DNA of 64,000 nucleotides from Myxococcota bacterium. GTDB taxonomy: Bacteria; Myxococcota_A; Polyangia; HGW-17. Below are positions 4,940 through 16,821 of this stretch, one piece after another. The notes beneath the pieces were generated by a model. The model made no database searches. It was not told the DNA's origin and saw nothing but the letters and a program-made list of their open reading frames with translations. How positions within the stretch are numbered: the stretch's first letter is position 1; every line of letters begins with the position of its first letter. The translations under genes and the position numbers were made by a program. Where the stretch lies: the NCBI GenBank assembly GCA_018821305.1, contig JAHJMN010000046.1, positions 15,894-79,893 on the forward strand, written 5' to 3'.

Positions 4940-5445
4940 GAGAAAAACATTTTGCAGCGTCTCCGGCGCGAATTTTTGAAGATAAAAACGGATTGCAGTG
5001 TCTCCACCGAGAGTTTTCATCAGTGAAAAAAGTTTTCGACTCCGCCGCCGGGAGTTTTGGAGGATAAAAACGGATTGCAGCGTTTCCACCGAGAGTTTTT
5101 ACCATAGAAAACGGTTTGTGACTTCTCCGGCGCGAATTTTTGAAGATAAAAACGGATTGCAGTGTCTCCACCGAGAGTTTTCATCAGTGAAAAAAGTTTT
5201 CGACTCCGCCGCCGGGAGTTTTAGAGGATAAAAACGGTTTTCGACTCCGCCGCCGGGAGTTTTGGAGGATAAAAACGGTTTTCGACTTCCCTGCCGCGAG
5301 TTTTTACCGTAGAAAACGGTTTGTGACTTCCCCGCCGGGAGTTTTTACCGTAGAAAACGGTTTGTGACTTCTCCGGCGCGAATTTTTGAAGATAAAAACG
5401 GATTGCAGTGTCTCCACCGCGAATTTTTATCGAGAAAAATTTTTG
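4940..5445. repeat. degenerate 41-bp tandem array (12 units) with a 164-bp higher-order repeat
   Basis: The unit ends (..AAAACGG / ..AAAAAAG) fall at about 4991, 5032, 5072, 5114, 5155, 5196, 5237, 5278, 5319, 5360, 5401 and 5441. Each unit is a GC-rich core (e.g. CTCCGCCGCCGGGAG), then a T-tract, then an A-tract. The 123-bp block near 4950-5072 is almost identical to 5114-5237. Weaker copies lie at 5540-5625. Confidence 0.9.
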
Positions 5446-5666: not shown

Positions 5667-6392
5667 TCAGGACATGGTGAGCTCAAGTCGGTGTTTTACT
5701 TTTTCCCATTGGGGAATAAGGTAGTCTAAAAGTCTGTAAAAATCCGGGCTGTGATTCGGATGAACCAAATGACAAAGTTCATGAGTTATGACGTAATCAA
5801 TGCATTCGATTGGAGCTTTTATGAGTTCTGGATTCAGGGTAAGTACTCCATTTCGAGACATGCTGCCCCAGCGTTTTTTCATCGCCCTGAGGTGGAGTTC
5901 AGGTAATTCAACTGTTTGCGGAAAATTTTCAATACAACGCTTTAAAATCTTTTGAAAATGAAACTGTGCTTTTTCAAGGTACCAGTCTTCCATGAGTGTT
6001 TTTACATGAGCAGGGGACACATCCTCTTTTGTTTCCACAATAAAAAAACCCCGCATAAGTTTAACTGAGTCAGATTGAAATGGAATAGTTTTAAGTCGAT
6101 AGTGCCTGCCAAGATAAAGGTGGGTTTCTCCACTTAAATAACTGCGAGGAGGAGTAAGTGGATTGAACTGATTGAAATATCTTATCTGCCTGATTATCCA
6201 TCCTGCTCTTTTTCGGAGTTTTGTCTCAATTATTGCTTCCGTTGCATTCAAAGGGGCTTTTACTCTTACGCAAGCATCAGGATGAACTGCTATTTCCATA
6301 GTTTCTCTGTCCACAAGCGTAAGTTCATAGACAAATTGATTTGTCCCCCATCTAAGGGTTTTAATTATAGATTCCGCATTTTCGAGCATCAT
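5667..6392 (-). CDS. M48-family / YgjP-like (DUF45) zinc metallopeptidase
   Basis: Carries the HExxH motif 'ITHELCHLVHPNHSPDFYRLL', typical of YgjP/DUF45 proteins. It overlaps the hsdR stop by 4 nt. Confidence 0.8.
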   Translation of the reverse strand: MMLENAESIIKTLRWGTNQFVYELTLVDRETMEIAVHPDACVRVKAPLNATEAIIETKLRKRAGWIIRQIRYFNQFNPLTPPRSYLSGETHLYLGRHYRLKTIPFQSDSVKLMRGFFIVETKEDVSPAHVKTLMEDWYLEKAQFHFQKILKRCIENFPQTVELPELHLRAMKKRWGSMSRNGVLTLNPELIKAPIECIDYVITHELCHLVHPNHSPDFYRLLDYLIPQWEKVKHRLELTMS

Positions 6393-9300
6393 TGGCTCCT
6401 TGAACGTGCAACCCGCAGGATCTGGGCAATTATTTCATCCATCTCTTTTATAGAAAGCGCAATGCCATGTCGACCCTTGAGTTCATCGAATAGATAATCA
6501 TCTATTTCATTTTTAACACTATTAAGGGCATCTTCATCCTCCCATAAATTTACTTTCCTGTTTTTTTCGAGGATTTTTTGAAGTGACGTTGCGGCATCAA
6601 CTGAGATAGCGTCAGAATCTGAAGTTTTATTGAGGACTTTTCTTACAACTCCGAAATAAGCCAGAGCTTCCGGATTATGGGCGATAACGTCCGGGACACC
6701 TTCGCGTACCCCTGATACCAATCTGTTTCTTATCTCCATAACTGTTTTAAGATATTCAAGATCTGACATGCGTTTTGCCCGGAAATCATCAATAGCTCGC
6801 TGAATCATTTCTGAAAAATCCTGATAAAAAGCCGGATCCTCATCCATCCGCTCGATAATTACTTTTTTAGTTGCATGGGCAATTGTATCAGCTTTGGATG
6901 CATCACTTTTTCTGTAAACCCCCTGCTGCTCCATGACACTTTTAAAAGTGCGTTCATCGAAGATATTCACAGGTTCATTAAGCATTTCAATTTTTTCTGC
7001 TCTGAGGTGTTTGTCCAGTAGTTTTCTTATTTTTGGTTCATAATCCCTGTAATCAATTGCTTCGGCATATCTCATTTTAACGCTGGTTCTGAGAGTGGAA
7101 AATCTTTTCAGGTCGTTTTTATATTTTTGAACCTGTTTTTCATCAGTTCTTTCAAGGAATTTTTCCGAGTTCATTGCGGTATGCAGGCATTTTCCGTATG
7201 CCATAAGGCGATTGTAAAATTCCTCCCGGACGTCATCATCAGCTAAAAGACGTTCATATGCTTCCTCATCATTGGAATTTCTAATACTTTTGAATATATC
7301 CCATAATTCCGAATATCGTTGAGGCAGGTTTGAAACTTCTGAAGAAATTGATGTAAAACTTCCCTCCAAATCCTGTTCATCAAACCCCTCCAGTGCCCCG
7401 TACATGGACAGCGCGCGATCCAGTTCTCCAAGGATACTTGCATAATCCATTATGAAACCGTTTTCTTTTCCTTCACATATCCGGTTTACCCTTGCTACTG
7501 CCTGAAGAAGTGTATGTTCCCGTAGTGTTCTTGTTATGTAAAGTACAGTATTTCGGGGGGCGTCAAAACCTGTCAGCAGTTTATCAACTACAATAAGAAT
7601 CTCAGGGTGCTCACCGTCTTTAAACTGGCTGATGATGCTGTTCAGGTAAGTTTCCTCATTCCCATGGCGTTTCATCATTTTGTTCCAGAAACGAACCACA
7701 TCATCTTTTGACTCATCTTCCGGCTCATCATATCCCTCGCGAAGGTCAGGGGGGGAAATAATAACTTCTGAAGTAATTTCAAATTCAGTTAAAAAATCCT
7801 GATATTTTATGGCACTTGCTTTATTCGGGGCCACCAGTTGGCCTTTAAACGGAGTATTCTGCCAGCATTTGCGGAAATTCTCAGCAATATCGAAGGCACA
7901 TTCATAAATAAAGGGGATGGACTTTTTAAGCATTTCAGTACGGGAGTATTTTCTTTTGAGATCAGCTTTCTGTTCATCGGTCAGTCTGCTTGTATGACGT
8001 TCGAACCATTTATCCAGTTCATCCTCATCTTTCGCCATTTGCACATGGCGGCCTTCATAAAGTAGTGGAACAACGGCTCCATCTAGAACAGCCTGTCTTA
8101 TGGAATAATACGGCTGAATTAACTCTCCAAACCTGAGAAAATTGTTTTTCTCCTCTTTCATTAAAGGAGTTCCAGTAAAGCCTATGTAACAGGCATTAGG
8201 GAACATTTGTCTCATGCGAGCGGAAAAAGAACCGAACTGGGTACGATGGCTTTCATCAACCAGAACAAAAATATCCGGTGATTCATCCTTGAATTTTTTT
8301 ACAGTGAAAGCTTTATCGAACTTATGCACAAGTGTCGTTATTATCCCTGCTTTCATTTCTGAAACCAAATCAATCAAATTTCTTCCGGAACTGGCCCGCC
8401 GGATATCAAGACCGCAGCTTGCGAAAGTATTTCCCAGTTGCCGATCAAGATCCGTACGATCAGTTACTGCAATTATGCGTGGATTTCTTATTTGGGGATC
8501 CAGTGCAAGATTTCTCACCAGCATGACCATTGTAAGGGATTTTCCGGAACCCTGAGTGTGCCAGATAATACCACCGTTACGGATATTATTGCTGTATAAC
8601 TTTACCCTCTCTAAAGCTGACTTGACCACAAAATACTGCTGATAACGTGCAATTTTTCGTAATCCCCCGTCAAAAACAGTGAATTTCCTGGTTATCTCAA
8701 TAAATCTTTCAGGTCGACATATTGAATAGAGCAATCTGTCCTGATAAGTTGCAGAACGGTGATTTGTGAATGTGTCTTTCTTAACATCGAAAACAAGGGA
8801 AATTTTATCATCAATGCCCTGGGAAAGAGGGCTATTTATCAGTTCTTCAAGTATTCTGTACTCCGGCGAGTTTTCATCGATCTCTTTCCATATACTCCAG
8901 AATTTTGATACAGTACCTGTCGCGGCATATTTCCCCGAGTTTTTATTTATTCCAAGAAGGATTTGACTGTAGATAAAGAGTCTGGGTATGTAATCATCCC
9001 CCTGATTTCTGATTTGCTGGGATACAGCTTGTTCAACATCCTCACTTGGTGCTTTACATTCGATGACTCCGGAGGGAATGCCATTTATAAAAAGAACTAT
9101 ATCCGGTCGCGCTGTTTCACGGCTTTTTGTGCGTTCAATACTGTATTCGACGGTTACATGAAATGCATTTTTCTGGATGTTCTGCCAGTCGATGTAATTA
9201 AAAGTAAAACTCTTATTATCACCTTCAATGTTCTGCTCAAGAGCACATCCAAGCGTAAGAAGATCATAAACAGTTTCGCTTGTTTTATTGAGCCCGTCAT

Positions 9301-9556
9301 ATTTAATATTTTTAAGTTTTTGTACTGCTGTCTGGATGTTTTCTTCGCTGAATAAATACTCACCCTTTCTGTATCTGATTCTGTTTATTTCCCGCAATTT
9401 ATTTTGCAGGATATTCTCCAGGATAACCTCAGAAACTCTGCTATTACGTTCGACGAGAGCTGCTGCGGGAGTAATAAACTCCCATCCAAGGGATATAAGA
9501 AGCCTCAAAGCCGGTATCTGGGAGGTCAGTTTTTCAGTTGTAGAAAATTCAGCCAT
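6389..9556 (-). CDS. hsdR: type I restriction endonuclease subunit R
   Basis: 1055 aa. The N-terminal nuclease region is followed by SF2 helicase motifs: Walker A 'TQGSGKSLTM' and DEAH-like 'VLVDESHRTQ'. It lies in a locus with hsdM and hsdS. Confidence 0.95.
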   Translation of the reverse strand: MAEFSTTEKLTSQIPALRLLISLGWEFITPAAALVERNSRVSEVILENILQNKLREINRIRYRKGEYLFSEENIQTAVQKLKNIKYDGLNKTSETVYDLLTLGCALEQNIEGDNKSFTFNYIDWQNIQKNAFHVTVEYSIERTKSRETARPDIVLFINGIPSGVIECKAPSEDVEQAVSQQIRNQGDDYIPRLFIYSQILLGINKNSGKYAATGTVSKFWSIWKEIDENSPEYRILEELINSPLSQGIDDKISLVFDVKKDTFTNHRSATYQDRLLYSICRPERFIEITRKFTVFDGGLRKIARYQQYFVVKSALERVKLYSNNIRNGGIIWHTQGSGKSLTMVMLVRNLALDPQIRNPRIIAVTDRTDLDRQLGNTFASCGLDIRRASSGRNLIDLVSEMKAGIITTLVHKFDKAFTVKKFKDESPDIFVLVDESHRTQFGSFSARMRQMFPNACYIGFTGTPLMKEEKNNFLRFGELIQPYYSIRQAVLDGAVVPLLYEGRHVQMAKDEDELDKWFERHTSRLTDEQKADLKRKYSRTEMLKKSIPFIYECAFDIAENFRKCWQNTPFKGQLVAPNKASAIKYQDFLTEFEITSEVIISPPDLREGYDEPEDESKDDVVRFWNKMMKRHGNEETYLNSIISQFKDGEHPEILIVVDKLLTGFDAPRNTVLYITRTLREHTLLQAVARVNRICEGKENGFIMDYASILGELDRALSMYGALEGFDEQDLEGSFTSISSEVSNLPQRYSELWDIFKSIRNSNDEEAYERLLADDDVREEFYNRLMAYGKCLHTAMNSEKFLERTDEKQVQKYKNDLKRFSTLRTSVKMRYAEAIDYRDYEPKIRKLLDKHLRAEKIEMLNEPVNIFDERTFKSVMEQQGVYRKSDASKADTIAHATKKVIIERMDEDPAFYQDFSEMIQRAIDDFRAKRMSDLEYLKTVMEIRNRLVSGVREGVPDVIAHNPEALAYFGVVRKVLNKTSDSDAISVDAATSLQKILEKNRKVNLWEDEDALNSVKNEIDDYLFDELKGRHGIALSIKEMDEIIAQILRVARSRSQ

Positions 9557-10421
9557 TATATACTCCGGCTTTTCGCGACGTTCTCACTTTGTAAAGTTTT
9601 TCAGTAAAACCACCTTCGTTTTCAAAATCCATGGCAAGTCTTTTTACTTGATTATCCAGAAGTGAACATGCAACTGTAATCAGTAAGAGTGCACTATTAG
9701 CGGATAATTCAGGGTAAATTTTTGAGGACAAGATGGACGAAGTGGACGAAGTGGACGAAGAATTAACAATTGTGTTAAATTGCTTGTGGGCTGAAGTTAT
9801 GATCCACTGGGCTACTTCATCTGCTGTTTTGAATCGCTGATTTATAAGTTCCTGTCGGAGTGGGTTACTGTAGTCCCACTGCTCTAAGCAGCGTTGTCTC
9901 AGGAAATCCTCATAATCGAGTTTCAGTTCTTCAAGACTGGCACGGGCAACCTGCGTTAGCTTCAGTTCGGTCTTTTTAGAAGTAGCTGAGGCCTGAGAAC
10001 CTTCAGCAATGTTCTGAACTCCGCTCCGAGCAGCCTGAATCATCTGGTCTTTTGTCCGGCTATATTTATCAATGTACCGCTCGCAGAACCTGACAGTTAT
10101 ATCGTAAACAAGCTGTGACAACTGAAAACTTTTCAACTTTCGGTACCCTCCATGTCTTGGAATTAAAGTGGACTGAGTGGACTGAGTGGACTGGGTGGAC
10201 TGAGTGGACTGGGTGGACTGGGTGGAGTTTGATGAACTGATCGAGCGTGGTTTTAAAACCTGCCTGCCTTGCCAAACATCCGGTTGCAGTAGCTCATCCT
10301 GTGCCAAGTGCTCATTGCACCCGATTTGGTCAACCTGCCCTGTATGTTCAAGGTGATCCGTTCGTCCACTCTGTCCACCTGGTCCACAATGTCCACGCTG
10401 TCCACTTTTTCTATTAAACAT
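9549..10421 (-). CDS. four-helix-bundle protein (23S rRNA-intervening-sequence/bAvd-like) with suffix domain and low-complexity insertions
   Basis: The core 'YDITVRFCERYIDKYSRTKDQMIQAARSGVQNIAEGSQASATSKKTELKLTQVARASLEELKLDYEDFL' matches the four-helix-bundle family as I recall it. The C-terminal '..DFENEGGFTEKLY' resembles the associated suffix domain. It has 8-nt overlaps with both neighbouring genes. Confidence 0.75.
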   Translation of the reverse strand: MFNRKSGQRGHCGPGGQSGRTDHLEHTGQVDQIGCNEHLAQDELLQPDVWQGRQVLKPRSISSSNSTQSTQSTQSTQSTQSTQSTLIPRHGGYRKLKSFQLSQLVYDITVRFCERYIDKYSRTKDQMIQAARSGVQNIAEGSQASATSKKTELKLTQVARASLEELKLDYEDFLRQRCLEQWDYSNPLRQELINQRFKTADEVAQWIITSAHKQFNTIVNSSSTSSTSSILSSKIYPELSANSALLLITVACSLLDNQVKRLAMDFENEGGFTEKLYKVRTSRKAGVYNG

Positions 10422-12264
10422 CTCTTACCTCCCGATTATTGCTCGCATTTTTACTGGCACTTACTGCTGTGTAAAAATTATTGAAAACGAGTTTGAATAT
10501 GAACCACCAAGCATAGATTGAATAAACATTACTGAAAGAGTTATAACTCATCAGTCCATGAGAAATTTCATTTCTAAGATTAGGTCCTGGAGATGTACAG
10601 AAAAGGTATTTTATCTCAAATTGTAGTTCTTCGCTGAAAACTGTTTTAAATTCAGGTAGTTTGACCAGTGTGCTAAGACCATTCTCATTTTCGATTCCGT
10701 TAGAATCTATCGTACTTGTTTTAGCTCCAGCATTTTTTAAATGGTATCTTACCAGATTTTCAAGTTGGGGAACCAGAATACTCAAAGAAGTTATAAAATC
10801 ATAGTTATATCCAGCATAAATGCCTTTCGAAAAAAAGAATTCTCTTCCCGGTGGTATTATGGGTGACCATTTGGTCACTTCCTGGAAGTCAATTTCCCTT
10901 AAATTATGTTCCCTGTTAAGTATATTAAGTGCTGGCAGTATTAATCCATATATATTTACTGTGATATGAATACCGTAAGTTTGTATTATACTTTCAACAA
11001 TTTTAGGATGTTCTTCTGATTTTTTTTCCGCATTAAGGATTCCTTCGCTTTTTGAAATAACATTACCTTCCGAACTGAAATGAGTTGATGGACAGAGATT
11101 TGAAAGAAGGTTATTATTTAAAAACTCTTCTGAATTTTTACGAATAAAATTAATATTTAAGGGTCCTGCAATATTTACAAACGATAAAAGTGCATCTCCT
11201 GGTTTTTTTCCAGAAATTGTTTTATTTGCCATGGGTAAGATTTCAGAGACATCTAAAGGCGAAAAGACTGGTTTCATCTGATCGAGCATCATTTTAGCTG
11301 CATTGTTCATTCTCTGGTGTGTTTCAGACAGTTTTTGTTCAATATCATACTGATCTCTAAATTCAGCGGGAATTTCACGATAATATTTCATTGCATTTTG
11401 ATAATTTTCATGAGCAAGAAACCATCCTTGCGGAGTTTCGCATTTTTCTCCGAAATCCTTAAAACTATCAGCAATTCTACATGTTATTTCGTGGTATTTA
11501 TCTTTATAGTAATTAGACCACTTGCGGCAGGCTTCGTAAAATAAAATTCCTGTGTGGTAATCTGATTTTTTAATTAATTCCTCTGCAGAATTTTCAAGTT
11601 TTATAGCAATTTCAGAATTTTCATTTTTTCCAAGATTGTACACCAAAAGTAGATCCGCCATCCAGATTAAAAACAGTCCATTTGAATAGTCTGATTGACG
11701 AAAAGCATCGATAATCTCTGTTTCCATTTCATTTAAATATTTTTCAGCAGTGTTTCCCATTATTTTTGCAAGATAAATTGCTCTGTACCAGCAATCTCTT
11801 CCATCTCGAATCCATTCTTCAGTCTCTAGCGGAGTTTTTCTATAGGCATCAATAGCTTGAAGATTTAATTTGTAACTTCTATTTCTATCAGCAGTTTTTA
11901 TCAGGTCAGCCAAGCGGGATTCCAGACATGGCAATTTTAGTTGTGGAAGAATATCTTCAAAAAAATCCAAATCTTCCTTTTTAAAATCCTCAAGCATTGC
12001 TGATCTGGTGTTCTGAAATATTAACATTGGAACAAAAGGATTTTTATTATTATCATTGTTTAAATTTAATGAACAGGCATCTGAAAGCAGCCAGTAAATT
12101 TTTGATTTTTTAAGGTCCCCGTTTTCTTTAAAAACCCGTGCAGCTTTTGCAAATGCTGAATACAGATCTGAGCATCTTTTTAGATTATCAATAAATCCCA
12201 GACATTCCTGCCAGTTGAAATCATTTTTACTTATTACTGTATTTCCAGAATACCTTTTCTCCAT
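10414..12264 (-). CDS. hypothetical 616-aa protein, DUF4209-like C-terminus with R-N-x3-H (HEPN-like) motif
   Basis: The long ORF starts 3 nt after the hsdS stop. The C-terminal 'SPGPNLRNEISHGLMS' places R564 at 10573-10575 and H569 at 10558-10560. The N-terminal ~400 aa is helical and repeat-like. The family assignment is from memory and was not searched. Confidence 0.6.
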   Translation of the reverse strand: MEKRYSGNTVISKNDFNWQECLGFIDNLKRCSDLYSAFAKAARVFKENGDLKKSKIYWLLSDACSLNLNNDNNKNPFVPMLIFQNTRSAMLEDFKKEDLDFFEDILPQLKLPCLESRLADLIKTADRNRSYKLNLQAIDAYRKTPLETEEWIRDGRDCWYRAIYLAKIMGNTAEKYLNEMETEIIDAFRQSDYSNGLFLIWMADLLLVYNLGKNENSEIAIKLENSAEELIKKSDYHTGILFYEACRKWSNYYKDKYHEITCRIADSFKDFGEKCETPQGWFLAHENYQNAMKYYREIPAEFRDQYDIEQKLSETHQRMNNAAKMMLDQMKPVFSPLDVSEILPMANKTISGKKPGDALLSFVNIAGPLNINFIRKNSEEFLNNNLLSNLCPSTHFSSEGNVISKSEGILNAEKKSEEHPKIVESIIQTYGIHITVNIYGLILPALNILNREHNLREIDFQEVTKWSPIIPPGREFFFSKGIYAGYNYDFITSLSILVPQLENLVRYHLKNAGAKTSTIDSNGIENENGLSTLVKLPEFKTVFSEELQFEIKYLFCTSPGPNLRNEISHGLMSYNSFSNVYSIYAWWFIFKLVFNNFYTAVSASKNASNNREVRDV

Positions 12265-12267
12265 AAA

Positions 12268-13398
12268 TTACGCCTCCTCGTACAGTTTGACGATTTCTGG
12301 TTTTATTCGCCACTGTCCAGTTAGCATTTTTTGCATCATGCCTCTTTTCTGGGTTTTATATTTTTCTAAAAGTTGCTTCAGTAAGTCGATTTCCTGCTGT
12401 GTGAAAGAAAGAGTCTCTGAAATCTGTTGTTGTTCCTCAATTGGTGGCCACCAAATTAGCAGACTCTTAATGTCTTTGGAGTACACATGTGGTTGAGCGC
12501 CACCTGATTGAAGAGAGTAGATTTTATGCTGTTCTGCCTTAAGACTGAAATAAAGAAATTTCGTAATTCCTTTAATTGCAAATAGAATATTGCAATCGGA
12601 TGCCCAAATTGGATAATTGTGATACCAAACAAATCCAGCGTATGCTCCTGATGCACTTACAGTGACTGTGGGCATTTCATGTGTATAACAATTTGTGAAA
12701 TAAGCATATGTTTGTCCACCAGCCACTACAGGAATTTCACCATCAATTTTTAGCTCTCTTGATAAAGACTTTCCTTTTTCTATTTTGATTTCTCTTCCTT
12801 CCAAATCTCCCAATTTTATTTTTTTCCGAGCATTTTTGCACAGAGCAGTGTATTGCGGATAATCTATTGAATCTTCGCCTGAAATTGAACCAGGAGACAT
12901 CATATCATTTAACAACCACTTGAATCGCATTTCCTTTGCCTGAATCAGGCGGTCGGTTGTTTCGATGGCTTCATCCCAGGTGGATAACATATCGGCAATG
13001 GCTTTCTGCTCCGGAAGCGGCGGAAAAAGGCACTTTAATTTGTGAATATTATTTCTGTTTAGTGTTGGAACTGAAGATGCTTCATCAAATTTTTCAAGAT
13101 TCAAATTTTCTAAAAATATTTTTACAAATTCAGGAAAATTATTCTTAAAATTCTTTACAAATAAAGTAGTGTCATGGGGCCAATAATTTTCGGTAACAAA
13201 ATATACTTTTCCAATTTTCCCTTTTCTTCCGGTAATTACTCCTGGACTTGAACATTTGTATTCATTATGAAAATATGAGATTCCGCTAGATGTAATTACT
13301 GGAATTTGGCCAAACTCAGTTTTGTCTTCGGTTAGATCAAACCCTCTTTGAAGTTCAAAGAAGTCAATAATATGACCTTTATTCCATTTATTTTTCAT
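12268..13398 (-). CDS. hsdS: type I restriction-modification specificity subunit (two TRDs)
   Basis: The central conserved region 'LPPLPEQKAIADMLSTWDEAIETTDRLIQAKEMRFKWL' and the C-terminal 'PPIEEQQQISETLSFTQQEIDLLKQLLEKYKTQKRGMMQKML' are typical HsdS coiled-coil spacers flanking two variable TRDs. Confidence 0.9.
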   Translation of the reverse strand: MKNKWNKGHIIDFFELQRGFDLTEDKTEFGQIPVITSSGISYFHNEYKCSSPGVITGRKGKIGKVYFVTENYWPHDTTLFVKNFKNNFPEFVKIFLENLNLEKFDEASSVPTLNRNNIHKLKCLFPPLPEQKAIADMLSTWDEAIETTDRLIQAKEMRFKWLLNDMMSPGSISGEDSIDYPQYTALCKNARKKIKLGDLEGREIKIEKGKSLSRELKIDGEIPVVAGGQTYAYFTNCYTHEMPTVTVSASGAYAGFVWYHNYPIWASDCNILFAIKGITKFLYFSLKAEQHKIYSLQSGGAQPHVYSKDIKSLLIWWPPIEEQQQISETLSFTQQEIDLLKQLLEKYKTQKRGMMQKMLTGQWRIKPEIVKLYEEA

Positions 13399-13433
13399 TT
13401 TATACTCCTACAAATAAATATAATTTCCATCAT

Positions 13434-14615
13434 TTAATTTATTATTTCACATATATGGACATTAACCGGAAACCCAGCGATGGAAGAGACCAGTTTGTTT
13501 ATAACTTTATTTTTTCTTTTTAACTGTCTAAAGATAAAATCTGGGTAAAAAACCAGCGTAATATTCAGAACTCCATCAATGTAATCATCTTCAATGAAGT
13601 GCCCTTCTTCCAATTGAAAGCCAAGTGAATTCTGAATTTCTTTAATTTTATTGATTATTTCATTCCATTTTTCATCATTTATTGTTGGTATTTTGGGGGA
13701 TGAATTCTCAGGTAAAACTGATCCTGTATGCAGGTTGTTATTAACCGGGACTATGGAATTTTCAGTTTTCTCGGTTATTTCCAACTTTGTTTTCACTTTT
13801 TTTTCAATTGATTTCAAATCATTTTCAGGGGTAGGTAAGTTCTCAGGCATTGTTCCCCCAAGATCTTTAATAGTCTGCCGTATTTTGCTTCCTACTTCAA
13901 AATGAGTCTTGTTCGCTTTTTCTTTTCCTGTAACGTTTTCACGTCTAAGTTTGTCTTCTGTCTGGGTTGCTCTGAAGAGATTGGCTGCCAATTCAGTACT
14001 GCCCATATTATCAAGAATCTGCTGGCTCTTTTTTAATCCTTTTCGGGCATGAATCCTTTTTGCGTCCAAACCACCATAAAGCCCTTTGTATCCATGGTTT
14101 TGAAAAATTGCAAAATCAAGATTGGATTCAACTCCAGCCTGTTGGGCAGCTTCAACTAGTTTTTTATTGTGTTCCTTCATCTCATTTCTCAGATAAAATC
14201 TCTTTTCGTCTTCTTTAAGTTCCTGGAAAGCCACATCATCAGCAAGTTCCTGTCTTCTTGTCTGAATGGCAAAATAGGTCTGGCCATTTGCAATTACCGA
14301 CTTTGAGGGATCTCCATTTTGAACAATAAGATAGCAGGCATAGCGGGAAAGAGCATAAGACTCCATTTTGCGCTCAGCACCTGAACCAATAGGAACCATC
14401 TCGTGCATCTCCACGAAATGGTTTTCCAGCAGTTGTCCGCTATTGACACATGCTTTTTTTGCTTTTTCGATAACTGGAAGAAAGTTACGATATTCTGCAT
14501 AGTCCAGAGTTTTTCCCAACTGTCTGGCCATCCAGTATTCAAAACCGTCATTACCAAGTTGTTTAATGTTCTCAAATGTCTGATCATGCTGTTTTTCGAT
14601 ATCCTTATTGCTCAT
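13434..14615 (-). CDS. dinD: DNA-damage-inducible protein D (DinD)-like protein with ~120-aa C-terminal extension
   Basis: The N-terminus 'FENIKQLGNDGFEYWMARQLGKTLDYAEYRNFLPVIEKAKKAC...YALSRYACYLIVQNGDP' resembles E. coli DinD as I recall it. Confidence 0.7.
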   Translation of the reverse strand: MSNKDIEKQHDQTFENIKQLGNDGFEYWMARQLGKTLDYAEYRNFLPVIEKAKKACVNSGQLLENHFVEMHEMVPIGSGAERKMESYALSRYACYLIVQNGDPSKSVIANGQTYFAIQTRRQELADDVAFQELKEDEKRFYLRNEMKEHNKKLVEAAQQAGVESNLDFAIFQNHGYKGLYGGLDAKRIHARKGLKKSQQILDNMGSTELAANLFRATQTEDKLRRENVTGKEKANKTHFEVGSKIRQTIKDLGGTMPENLPTPENDLKSIEKKVKTKLEITEKTENSIVPVNNNLHTGSVLPENSSPKIPTINDEKWNEIINKIKEIQNSLGFQLEEGHFIEDDYIDGVLNITLVFYPDFIFRQLKRKNKVINKLVSSIAGFPVNVHICEIIN

Positions 14616-14664: not shown

Positions 14665-16224
14665 TTATTCAACCCCTCTATCTATCTGCTTAAGTTTTTC
14701 AGCTAATTTGATTCGAATAACAGCGAGTTCTTTTTCCAGTTCGTCGATTTCAGTCTGCACAGCATCAATATCGATGGGTTCTTCTTCCTCAAAAGTGTCA
14801 ACATATCTTGGAATATTGAGATTAAAGTCATTTTCCTTTATCTCTGAGAAATCGGCAGTATGAGCGTATTTATCAACATCCTTCCGATTGTGATAAACAT
14901 TCAAAATTGTTTCAAGATGTTCATCGGAAAGGGTGTTCTGATTTTTACCAGATACAAAATCTCGACTGGCATCAATAAAAATAATATCCCGGCAGTTATC
15001 CCGGGTGCCACCTGCTTCACGACGGCGATCAAATACCAGAATTGCGACAGGAATGTTGGTTGTGGTAAACAGGTTACCCGGAAGACCAATTACAGCGTCA
15101 AGGAGGTTTTCCTCGATCAATTTCTGCCGGATACGACCTTCAGCAGCGCCCCTGAACAAAACTCCATGTGGGACCACAACAGCGACTCGTCCCTGTTTTT
15201 CCAGAGCTGTTTCCACCATGTGGGTGATAAAGGCCCAGTCACCCTTGCTTTTAGGGGGGACACCGCGCCAGAAGCGGTTGTACTGATCGCCTTCAGCATT
15301 CTCAGCACCCCATTTATCCAGTGAGAATGGCGGATTGGCTACCACACAATTGAATTTCATGAGCCTGTCGTTTTCTACCAGAAGTGGGCTGTTCAGTGTA
15401 TCACACCACTCTATCCGGGCGGAGTCAAAACTGTGCAGGAACATATTCATACGGCAAAGAGCCCATGTGGAACCGTTGGATTCCTGACCAAAAAGTGCAA
15501 AATCTTTGCTTCCCACTTGTTTTGCAGCCTGAATTAAAAGACCACCTGAACCACAGGCGGGATCGCAGATTCGATCACCGGGTTCGGGCCCAGCTAGTTT
15601 TGCTACAAGTTCAGTGACTTTAAGTGGTGTGAAGAATTCACCGGCTTTCTTTCCTGAATCAGAGGCGAAACGTTCAATAAGATAAATGTATGTGTTGCCT
15701 ATTACATCCTCGGAAACGAGGCTTGGTTTCATACTAAGTTGTGGCTTATTGAAGTCTTCAAGCAACTGCTTAAGGCGGCGGTTTCGGTCTTTTGTTTTAC
15801 CGAGGGCCGACTCGCTGTTGAAGTTAATATTACGAAAAACACCTTCAAGTTTCGAACGGTTGGCCATTTCTATCTGATCGAGGACGATGTTGATGAGTTC
15901 TCCAATGTTAGCCTCATTACGTCGCTCGTAAAGGCTGTAGAATGTTGCAGTAAAAACTTCCTGAGAGGGTTCATTCGGTGCCCCAAGAGTAATTTCAGGA
16001 AGAATAAAGCGTTCGCGTTCAAGTCTGCGACGAATACGAACATGGTCATTACCATATTGTTTCTGATACTCATCCCAGTGATCCTGCCAAACGTCGGAAA
16101 TATATTTTAAAAATAGCATTACAAGGATGTAATCCTTATATTGTGCAGGATCCACTACGCCTCTGAATGTATCACATGCCGCCCATGCAGCGGCGTTGAT
16201 ATCTTTCTGGTCGATTGTTGTCAT
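14665..16224 (-). CDS. hsdM: type I restriction-modification DNA methyltransferase subunit M
   Basis: Contains the N6-adenine MTase motifs 'GEFFTP', 'DPACGSGG' and 'VVANPPFSL'. 519 aa. Confidence 0.95.
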   Translation of the reverse strand: MTTIDQKDINAAAWAACDTFRGVVDPAQYKDYILVMLFLKYISDVWQDHWDEYQKQYGNDHVRIRRRLERERFILPEITLGAPNEPSQEVFTATFYSLYERRNEANIGELINIVLDQIEMANRSKLEGVFRNINFNSESALGKTKDRNRRLKQLLEDFNKPQLSMKPSLVSEDVIGNTYIYLIERFASDSGKKAGEFFTPLKVTELVAKLAGPEPGDRICDPACGSGGLLIQAAKQVGSKDFALFGQESNGSTWALCRMNMFLHSFDSARIEWCDTLNSPLLVENDRLMKFNCVVANPPFSLDKWGAENAEGDQYNRFWRGVPPKSKGDWAFITHMVETALEKQGRVAVVVPHGVLFRGAAEGRIRQKLIEENLLDAVIGLPGNLFTTTNIPVAILVFDRRREAGGTRDNCRDIIFIDASRDFVSGKNQNTLSDEHLETILNVYHNRKDVDKYAHTADFSEIKENDFNLNIPRYVDTFEEEEPIDIDAVQTEIDELEKELAVIRIKLAEKLKQIDRGVE

Positions 16225-16245: not shown

Positions 16246-16821
16246 TCAGTAACCTTTTTTTATAATTTTACAAAGTTGATTTGTTATAAGTTGATATTTT
16301 TTCTCTGCAATTGCCTTTATGATTTCGTTTTCACGGCGAGCCAGAGCAGCAATGTCGATAAGTCTTGTTTGAATTTGAATAGGGAGTAGAGGAACCTCCA
16401 GATTTTCAAGTGTTTCTTTAGAAATCATTTTCTGGACTGTGAAATTAGCTCGGCTTTCCAGAAAAGCCTGAGCCTGTTTCTGACTCATGTACCAGTTGAG
16501 GAATTCCGGTAATATGAGCTCTGTGTTTTTTATACGGATCCTCAGGAGGGGAGCGGCAATAACTGCATTACCGGGATCAGTAGAAATTATAGCCGAATCT
16601 GAAGTGTTTCCCCGAGTTCGGAATACAAGATCACCTGTTTTTACAAAATGCTTTTCGTTAATATCATTAAAAGAAATGCGAATTACTTCAGAGAAATCGA
16701 CAATTTCGTCACCAAGATCTTTCATCTGAATAATGATGAGATTTCCGCCTGAGGTTGGTTCCAGACGAGATCTGAAAGAATAACCCATTTGGATATCAGC
16801 CACTTCTTTAAGTAAAGTCAT
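16246..16821 (-). CDS. hsdS: half-size (single-TRD) type I specificity subunit
   Basis: Track ORF is 16246..17058. The HsdS-like sequence begins at the internal Met (16821) as 'MTLLKEVADIQMGYSFRS'. It ends with the conserved helix 'LPIQIQTRLIDIAALARRENEIIKAIAEKKYQL'. The product would be about 192 aa. Confidence 0.7.
   Translation of the reverse strand: MTLLKEVADIQMGYSFRSRLEPTSGGNLIIIQMKDLGDEIVDFSEVIRISFNDINEKHFVKTGDLVFRTRGNTSDSAIISTDPGNAVIAAPLLRIRIKNTELILPEFLNWYMSQKQAQAFLESRANFTVQKMISKETLENLEVPLLPIQIQTRLIDIAALARRENEIIKAIAEKKYQLITNQLCKIIKKGY

Follow-up and report, generated by a model that had tools for sequence, protein, structure and literature searches.

According to Anantharaman et al. 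2013 (PMC3710099), helices 2 and 3 of HEPN domains are separated by an insert and helices 3 and 4 by a stretch with an Rx4-6H motif, and helix 2 contains a conserved acidic residue; these domains are common as toxins in toxin-antitoxin systems, and some HEPN families are inactive binders. Table 1 of that work lists the C6orf70 family, which overlaps Pfam DUF4209, as a HEPN family with a conserved Rx4-6H motif. The authors describe this family as 'fused to TPR' and note that it 'occurs in R-M related operons' (R-M, restriction-modification), and they derive the eukaryotic copies from bacteria; the eukaryotic C6orf70/ERMARD proteins were predicted to have a transmembrane segment and to act at the membrane of the endoplasmic reticulum (ER). 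Payne et al. 2024 (bioRxiv 10.1101/2024.01.29.577857) took genes located within BREX, DISARM and type I R-M systems as the source of 145 phage defence candidates (PDCs), which were released as PADLOC models. Only the Hma-embedded candidates were tested, including HEC-08, a DUF3644 HEPN protein whose defence was abolished by mutation of the motif His. In the same work, PrrC was found almost exclusively embedded in type I R-M. Here, we describe a gene in a type I R-M operon of a Myxococcota bacterium (GCA_018821305.1), located in a window of 64,000 nucleotides (nt), by which we mean the whole stretch of DNA analysed (contig JAHJMN010000046.1, positions 15,894 to 79,893). The gene is an open reading frame (ORF) of 616 amino acids (aa) at 10414..12264 on the minus strand, and it belongs to the DUF7380 + DUF4209 family, catalogued in PADLOC as PDC-S39. 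On balance, we consider it probable that its product is a self-contained, ATP-independent, single-polypeptide abortive-infection effector of the HEPN type, carried as cargo in the type I operon.

Public gene callers predict the same 616-aa product. The gene is the fifth in a tightly packed operon of eight genes, all on the minus strand. At its upstream junction, the hsdS stop codon TAA is followed by TTT and then by the start codon ATG, a gap of 3 nt. At the other end, its stop sits within ATGTTTAA, and the same ATGTTTAA contains the first ATG of the next gene, a four-helix-bundle (4HB) ORF. With the gathering cut-off as the threshold for membership, the protein belongs to Pfam DUF7380 (PF24098; residues 9-174, E 1.6e-34, 119.7 bits against a cut-off of 27) and to DUF4209 (PF13910; residues 501-592, E 1e-17, 64.4 bits against 22.3), and the latter match covers the whole 89-position profile. 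Moreover, PADLOC PDC-S39 was matched over the full length, with residues 14-607 on profile positions 11-610 of 615 in model PDLC05012 (E 3e-183), and a second PDC-S39 model was also matched full length (E 3.9e-109). PHROGs 31613 and 5183, both of unknown function, match the protein over its full length as well, and no NCBIfam model matching it was found. These profile matches place the ORF in the DUF7380 + DUF4209 family (PDC-S39), as an intact copy. Clustered at 50% identity, the family has 7240 representatives that match at E <= 1e-3 and 2664 that match at E <= 1e-30, and the nearest relatives of the window's protein are only about 43% identical to it.

Near the C-terminus, the protein contains PGPNLRNEISHGL, with R564 encoded at 10573-10575 and H569 at 10558-10560. 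A bare Rx4-6H motif is within chance expectation, as it occurs in 71% of shuffles of the 616-aa protein, and in 38% in the form with a polar residue following the Arg. Conservation was assessed in 261 non-identical homologs, composed of 40 search matches, 150 cluster representatives and the copies from 80 genome loci. The residues R564, N565, H569 and G570 were kept in 258, 257, 259 and 260 homologs, respectively, and five others (G485, P499, Q500, E502 and R506) were invariant in all 261. Four of these invariant residues make up P499-Q500-x-E502-x3-R506, which lies one helix upstream of the R564..H569 motif. A second conserved cluster is located in the N-terminal domain and consists of R117 (253), D120 (253), Y141 (258) and R161 (258). 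The window's protein retains every one of these residues. At the level of sequence, it is the conservation of the motif, not its occurrence, that exceeds chance.

The AlphaFold2 model of the full-length protein (mean predicted local distance difference test, pLDDT, 85.6; predicted template modelling score, pTM, 0.53) is nearly all helical, and all-alpha up to about residue 415. A Foldseek search of this model against the PDB returned weak TPR/solenoid matches only (E 8e-4 to 1e-2, template modelling scores of 0.1-0.2). Modelled alone, residues 415-616 gave a confident structure (pLDDT 89, pTM 0.84). Its helices run from 475 to 486 and from 490 to 511, the second carrying P-Q-x-E-x3-R; an insert formed by a beta-hairpin (517-527) and a short helix follows, and then come a helix at 537-556, the turn with R564..H569 and a long helix at 580-614. 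In the model, E502 lies in the predicted helix preceding the insert. This order of predicted helices agrees with the canonical description of HEPN domains (PMC3710099). The parts of the protein are located as follows:

11743..12240, minus strand, N-terminal DUF7380 domain (PF24098), residues 9-174, with the conserved R117, D120, Y141 and R161
11023..11742, minus strand, middle all-helical region of TPR/solenoid-like appearance, residues 175-414 (AlphaFold2 pLDDT mostly >85; weak Foldseek TPR-type matches)
10423..10842, minus strand, predicted HEPN-like helical core, residues 475-614, including the DUF4209 match at 10489-10764
10747..10770, minus strand, P499-Q500-x-E502-x3-R506 in the helix before the insert (261/261 homologs), with E502 as the candidate HEPN helix-2 acidic residue
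10558..10575, minus strand, R564-N565-E-I-S-H569, the Rx4H motif, from sequence and homolog conservation

The 616-aa protein has no Walker A pattern, and it matched neither a P-loop family in Pfam nor the PrrC and RloC models in PADLOC. These results agree well with the original prediction, which had been made from the sequence of the window alone. It had placed the ORF 3 nt past the hsdS stop, pointed to an R-N-x3-H motif near the C-terminus, described the N-terminal ~400 aa as helical and repeat-like and as lacking a Walker motif or ABC-type nucleoside triphosphatase (NTPase), supposed a resemblance to DUF4209 and looked to the R..H pair for conservation among homologs, and all of this was borne out. 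It had also placed the ORF between hsdS and hsdR with its stop overlapping the next start; the interval and the overlap both stand, and the gene that is overlapped is the 4HB ORF, so that the claim fails on this point if the next gene was taken to be hsdR.

The genomic context of relatives was surveyed in 80 loci from one-genome-per-species contigs, with 520 of the 600 pattern matches examined encoding a relative. These 80 loci hold the nearest relatives among the matches listed, and the fractions given here describe that part of the family only. The R-M proteins of the window served as queries against these loci, as did cluster representatives that had been identified by Pfam and PADLOC. In 20 of the 80 loci, and in 14 of the 44 with at least 5 kilobases (kb) on both sides, the gene was found in a type I R-M context, after hsdS and, where the contig extends, before hsdR. 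Ten loci (8 of the 44) were class 1 DISARM systems with the order DrmD, DrmMI, the gene, DrmA, DrmB and DrmC. Taken together, 30 of the 80 copies (22 of the 44 with long flanks) were embedded in type I or DISARM systems, always downstream of a methylase or specificity gene, and the relatives are strongly associated with methylation-based defence loci. Additionally, the predicted start was located -11 to +4 nt from the hsdS or drmMI stop in 20 of 28 embedded loci. Public contigs annotated with Pfam agreed with this survey and included type I-embedded copies (P0016 and P0031), a solo copy beside an AlbA_2-HATPase_c_4 gene (P0019) and a copy among transposases (P0037).

The other 50 loci (22 of the 44 with long flanks) had no conserved neighbour. 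Their flanks were mixed: integrase, AAA_21/AAA_15, PIN and Fic genes each accounted for 3 of 146 neighbours and TIR genes for 2, the rest including housekeeping genes, and no Pfam family was counted more than 3 times among the 146. When ORFs of 100 aa or more from these 50 loci were clustered, no conserved partner gene emerged, and clustering of ORFs of 40-130 aa returned only an out-of-frame artefact within the 3' end of the gene itself. The conserved N-terminal residues and the architecture were alike in embedded and solo copies. In a neighbour-joining tree, type I, DISARM and other contexts interleaved, for example with a DISARM copy as the sister of a type I copy; therefore, the gene has moved between contexts repeatedly.

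Family copies were also found on conjugative plasmids and in a phage. In the P2-like Escherichia phage vB_EcoM-569R9 (locus L081, 3689-5620), a PDC-S39 gene (E 8.5e-85) is located between the replication gene A and the portal gene Q, in a hotspot with no R-M, and its product is 22% identical to the window's protein. A 2.2-kb record of P2-EC46 (ECOR46) contains a fragment related to the PDC-S39 gene. In at least nine relatives (L022, L041, L044, L047, L048, L050, L065, L085 and L086, the last outside any R-M system), a gene encoding DUF4062 or AlbA_2 + HATPase_c_4 lies directly 3' of the DUF4209 gene, and in many cases its start codon overlaps the stop codon of that gene; it may be a second module that is often embedded as well, or a partner that is present only at times. 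In Crenobacter intestini (L030, 9752-11857), the DUF4209 gene is probably a pseudogene, because its coding sequence is broken into one ORF at 9752-11362 and a second, consecutive one at 11366-11857.

The position of the 616-aa gene, in the same interval as prrC in hsdM-hsdS-prrC-hsdR, raises the question of a PrrC-like guard that would dock on HsdM2S or DrmMI and be held inactive there until a phage anti-restriction factor frees the RNase (ribonuclease). The tight start in 20 of the 28 embedded loci, seen in two types of system, is consistent with translational coupling and co-assembly, and every one of the 30 embedded relatives follows a methylase or specificity gene. However, the 50 relatives without a nearby R-M or DISARM system do not differ in length, in domains or in the conserved residues of the N-terminus, one copy of the family occupies a hotspot of a P2-like phage that lacks R-M, and embedded and solo copies interleave in the tree. 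Moreover, PrrC, in contrast, is almost exclusively found in type I R-M (Payne et al. 2024), and its NTPase domain is missing from the 616-aa protein. We regard such a guard as unlikely, although for the embedded copies it stays conceivable in view of their very tight junction with the methylase or specificity gene. The original prediction had the effector 'kept silent by the type I enzyme'. As a rule for the family this does not hold, given that half or more of the relatives lie outside R-M, others lie in DISARM and one lies in a P2-like phage; therefore, control by HsdMSR cannot be a general family property. The related expectation of homologs in R-M or defence neighbourhoods was supported, with 30 of the 80 copies embedded. 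A portable form of the guard, which would sit directly behind the adenine-methylase or specificity gene of unrelated methylation-based systems (hsdS in type I, drmMI in class 1 DISARM), assemble there and fire its HEPN RNase once an anti-restriction factor disables the module, appears distinctly unlikely to us. If true, it would represent PrrC-like logic without an NTPase, common to two system types.

We favour an autonomous effector, because 50 of the 80 relatives have no conserved neighbour, their flanks are mixed, no conserved small ORF was found and the architecture is the same in embedded and solo copies. Its association with defence is indicated by the placement in type I and DISARM systems, the copy in a P2-like phage, the copies on plasmids, the PHROGs matches and the precedent of HEC-08. 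Specifically, we infer that the C-terminal ~140 residues would form a metal-independent RNase of the HEPN type, with a putative active site to which the motif would contribute R564, N565 and H569 and the helix before it E502, Q500 and R506. By analogy with other HEPN RNases, homodimerisation probably completes this active site. The N-terminal helical part of ~415 residues (DUF7380 and the TPR-like region) might act as sensor and autoinhibitor. An infection cue met by this part would release the RNase, leading to growth arrest or abortive infection. The ORF presumably shares a transcript with hsdS, and its translation is probably coupled to that of hsdS. In such a scheme, the gene would provide a second line of defence behind restriction, and its regulation would not need the R-M enzyme.

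Several results weigh against this explanation. A Foldseek search with the C-terminal model found nothing significant (best E 1.5 in the PDB and 0.56 in BFVD), and sequence searches of the PDB with the protein and with the C-terminal profile gave no match. When the C-terminal domains of 18 relatives were scanned with hmmscan at E <= 10, DUF4209 alone was detected (18/18), and no other HEPN family. Abi_2 served as the single HEPN reference for profile-profile comparison; its genes were fetched from viral contigs by motif pattern and verified as Abi_2 at E 1e-49 to 1e-56, and none of the R-[ND]-x3-H ORFs from the fetched loci, which were also sought as a HEPN reference, matched a Pfam family. 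The hhalign comparison with Abi_2 reached a probability of 1.8-3.7% (P 0.011-0.028) and aligned little beyond the motif, its core being N-L-R-N-x-x-A-H-G against l-R-N-x-C-A-H-H. In addition, the window's protein departs notably from its homologs at one residue, 495 (10780-10782), 4 residues before the invariant P-Q-x-E, which is Ser there and His in 246 of the 261 homologs. The tight hsdS and drmMI junctions could reflect co-assembly with the methylase module, not mere co-expression. Finally, the literature search found no experimental work on the DUF7380 + DUF4209 / PDC-S39 family.

The prediction of a HEPN domain draws on residue conservation, on the agreement in topology and on the profile analysis by Anantharaman et al. 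2013, and it received no confirmation from our own fold searches. The HEPN RNase effector proposed in the original prediction is supported to the same extent, by the near-invariant motif and by DUF4209, but not by a fold found with Foldseek or hhalign. The missing fold matches would also fit a binding role of the R/N/H residues and P-Q-x-E-x3-R, with RNA, a nucleotide or modified DNA as the ligand; the protein would then be a non-catalytic regulator or accessory factor of methylation-based systems, or might have a function outside defence. The inactive binders among the HEPN families (PMC3710099) are in line with such a role, as is the fact that the RNA role of eukaryotic C6orf70/ERMARD is a prediction, with no supporting experiments found in the literature. 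Nevertheless, active enzymes typically show what is seen in the 261 homologs, namely that exactly the catalytic-type residues are nearly invariant, and the contexts (type I, DISARM and the P2 hotspot, with TIR, PIN, Fic and AAA_21 neighbours) are those of defence cargo, which leaves a protein that is not a nuclease improbable in our view.

The mobility of the gene bears on another explanation, in which a toxin-like product would chiefly secure the maintenance of the mobile cassette (R-M or DISARM), or of the carrier phage or plasmid, rather than defend against phages. Copies occur on conjugative plasmids, beside transposases and recombinases and in a prophage-type phage, the segment from hsdS to the ORF has a G+C content of 34-36%, below the window average, and HEPN domains are frequent as toxins of toxin-antitoxin systems (PMC3710099). 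However, no conserved antitoxin-like neighbour of any size was found, and one large protein with its own regulatory region of ~415 aa is an atypical toxin-antitoxin layout. We consider an addiction module very unlikely and retain the autonomous abortive-infection effector as the explanation of choice.

The operon around the 616-aa ORF contains the following genes, given in their order of transcription:

16246..16821, minus strand, half-size HsdS-like gene (Methylase_S), operon gene 1, upstream of hsdM
14665..16224, minus strand, hsdM (N6_Mtase E 4e-102, and HsdM_N)
13434..14615, minus strand, DinD-like / Bro-N gene between hsdM and hsdS (NF008573 E 1e-140; PADLOC PDC-S13 E 2.4e-119)
12268..13398, minus strand, hsdS (Methylase_S E 4.9e-33), with its stop 3 nt upstream of the start of the 616-aa ORF
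10414..12264, minus strand, 616-aa ORF of the DUF7380 + DUF4209 (PADLOC PDC-S39) family, by Pfam and PADLOC
9549..10421, minus strand, 4HB + suffix-domain ORF of 290 aa (23S_rRNA_IVP; TIGR04258 E 1.4e-16; TIGR02436)
6389..9556, minus strand, hsdR (HSDR_N, SWI2_SNF2, T1R_D3-like)
5667..6392, minus strand, YgjP-like metallopeptidase gene (PF01863 E 6.5e-56), the last of the operon, overlapping the hsdR stop by 4 nt

A promoter scan of the operon gave scores at background level. The G+C content is 34-36% across the ORF, hsdS and the dinD-like gene (window 10000-14000) versus roughly 40-47% in most of the window, which points to a separate acquisition of the variable middle of the operon. The half-size HsdS-like gene encodes 191 aa in public gene calls and has the same placement in the closest related cassettes (L001, L002, L004, L056 and L076). 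The DinD-like gene, whose NCBIfam name is 'DNA damage-inducible protein D', extends for ~100 additional C-terminal residues past the NF008573 and PDC-S13 models. At least 11 related type I loci have a YgjP-like metallopeptidase gene 3' of hsdR. Shortly past the last gene of the operon, a tandem array (window 5000-5439) consists of ~10.7 copies of a ~41-nt unit with 69% matches; it scores with periods of 82, 123 and 164 too, and its consensus unit was read as holding a short inverted repeat.

The 4HB ORF overlaps both of its neighbours, the 616-aa ORF and hsdR, by 8 nt each. It has at least 8000 homologs with ~70-75% identity across phyla, and PADLOC has no model for it. Most of these homologs are 204-222 aa long and cover just the last ~70% of the 290-aa ORF. 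Its true start may be located downstream of the ATGTTTAA overlap, because the first ~85 codons hold 9-nt tandem repeats (10167-10226 and 10364-10406). In 6 of 7 places inspected, the 4HB homolog lies in a type I operon and immediately precedes hsdR or an AlbA_2-HATPase_c_4 gene. The 4HB gene was considered as a conserved partner or antitoxin of the 616-aa gene and was rejected, because none of the 80 related loci contains a homolog of it; the operon carries it as an embedded gene in its own right.

The original prediction had regarded the gene as an 'undescribed variant'. This cannot be maintained, as the DUF4209 HEPN class, its TPR fusion and its occurrence in R-M operons were reported by Anantharaman et al. 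2013, and PDC-S39 is catalogued. The supplements of Payne et al. 2024 name neither PDC-S39 nor DUF4209, and PDC-S39 otherwise appears only in defence-system censuses, for example those of P. aeruginosa PAO1 and of one E. coli O157:H7 strain. The literature search found no paper mentioning DUF7380 and no RNase or defence experiment on DUF4209, ERMARD or C6orf70. Earlier work already documents the family, predicts its HEPN domain, links it to R-M and lists it among the defence candidates, and the 616-aa gene is a fairly divergent new member. The gene is a sound target for functional study, although it reveals no new kind of system. If the prediction holds, the family would represent a simple, ATP-independent, single-protein RNase effector that occurs in bacteria, archaea, plasmids and P2-like phages and is carried in varied ways, either solo or inserted in type I R-M and DISARM operons. 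Since its 7240 cluster representatives share DUF4209 with human ERMARD/C6orf70, a first functional test would be useful.

Compared with the known systems, the 616-aa protein resembles PrrC (of the EcoprrI locus) and RloC in its C-terminal Rx4-6H-type motif and in occupying the hsdS-hsdR interval of a type I operon, whereas it lacks their ABC-ATPase and Walker motifs. The distribution also differs, as PrrC is almost confined to type I R-M and the PDC-S39 relatives are divided among type I (20/80), DISARM (10/80) and other places (50/80), with further copies in a phage and on plasmids. HEC-08 is likewise a lone HEPN-type protein inside a helicase/methylase defence system, and its defence needs the motif His; unlike the 616-aa protein, it belongs to another HEPN family (DUF3644), with an N-terminal HEPN domain, zinc-finger-like C-terminal domains and Hma as the host system. 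Abi2/AbiD/AbiF proteins (Pfam Abi_2) have a similar motif, l-R-N-x-C-A-H-H compared with N-L-R-N-x-x-A-H-G, and have been reported in R-M operons (PMC3710099), but the profile-profile similarity is limited to the motif and not significant, and both the size and the N-terminal region are different. The C6orf70/ERMARD proteins share with the family of the 616-aa protein the Pfam domain PF13910 (EMARD_N in a newer release), the Rx4-6H motif, the fusion to TPR-like repeats and the occurrence in R-M operons; they differ in that the eukaryotic proteins are predicted ER-membrane proteins with a transmembrane segment, whereas the bacterial protein has an N-terminal DUF7380 domain. The closest described system is PDC-S39 itself, which the 616-aa ORF matches over its full length and from which it shows no structural difference; the contexts found here, type I R-M and DISARM, are among the source contexts of the PDCs, and the window's copy is set apart by its ~43% identity to its nearest relatives.

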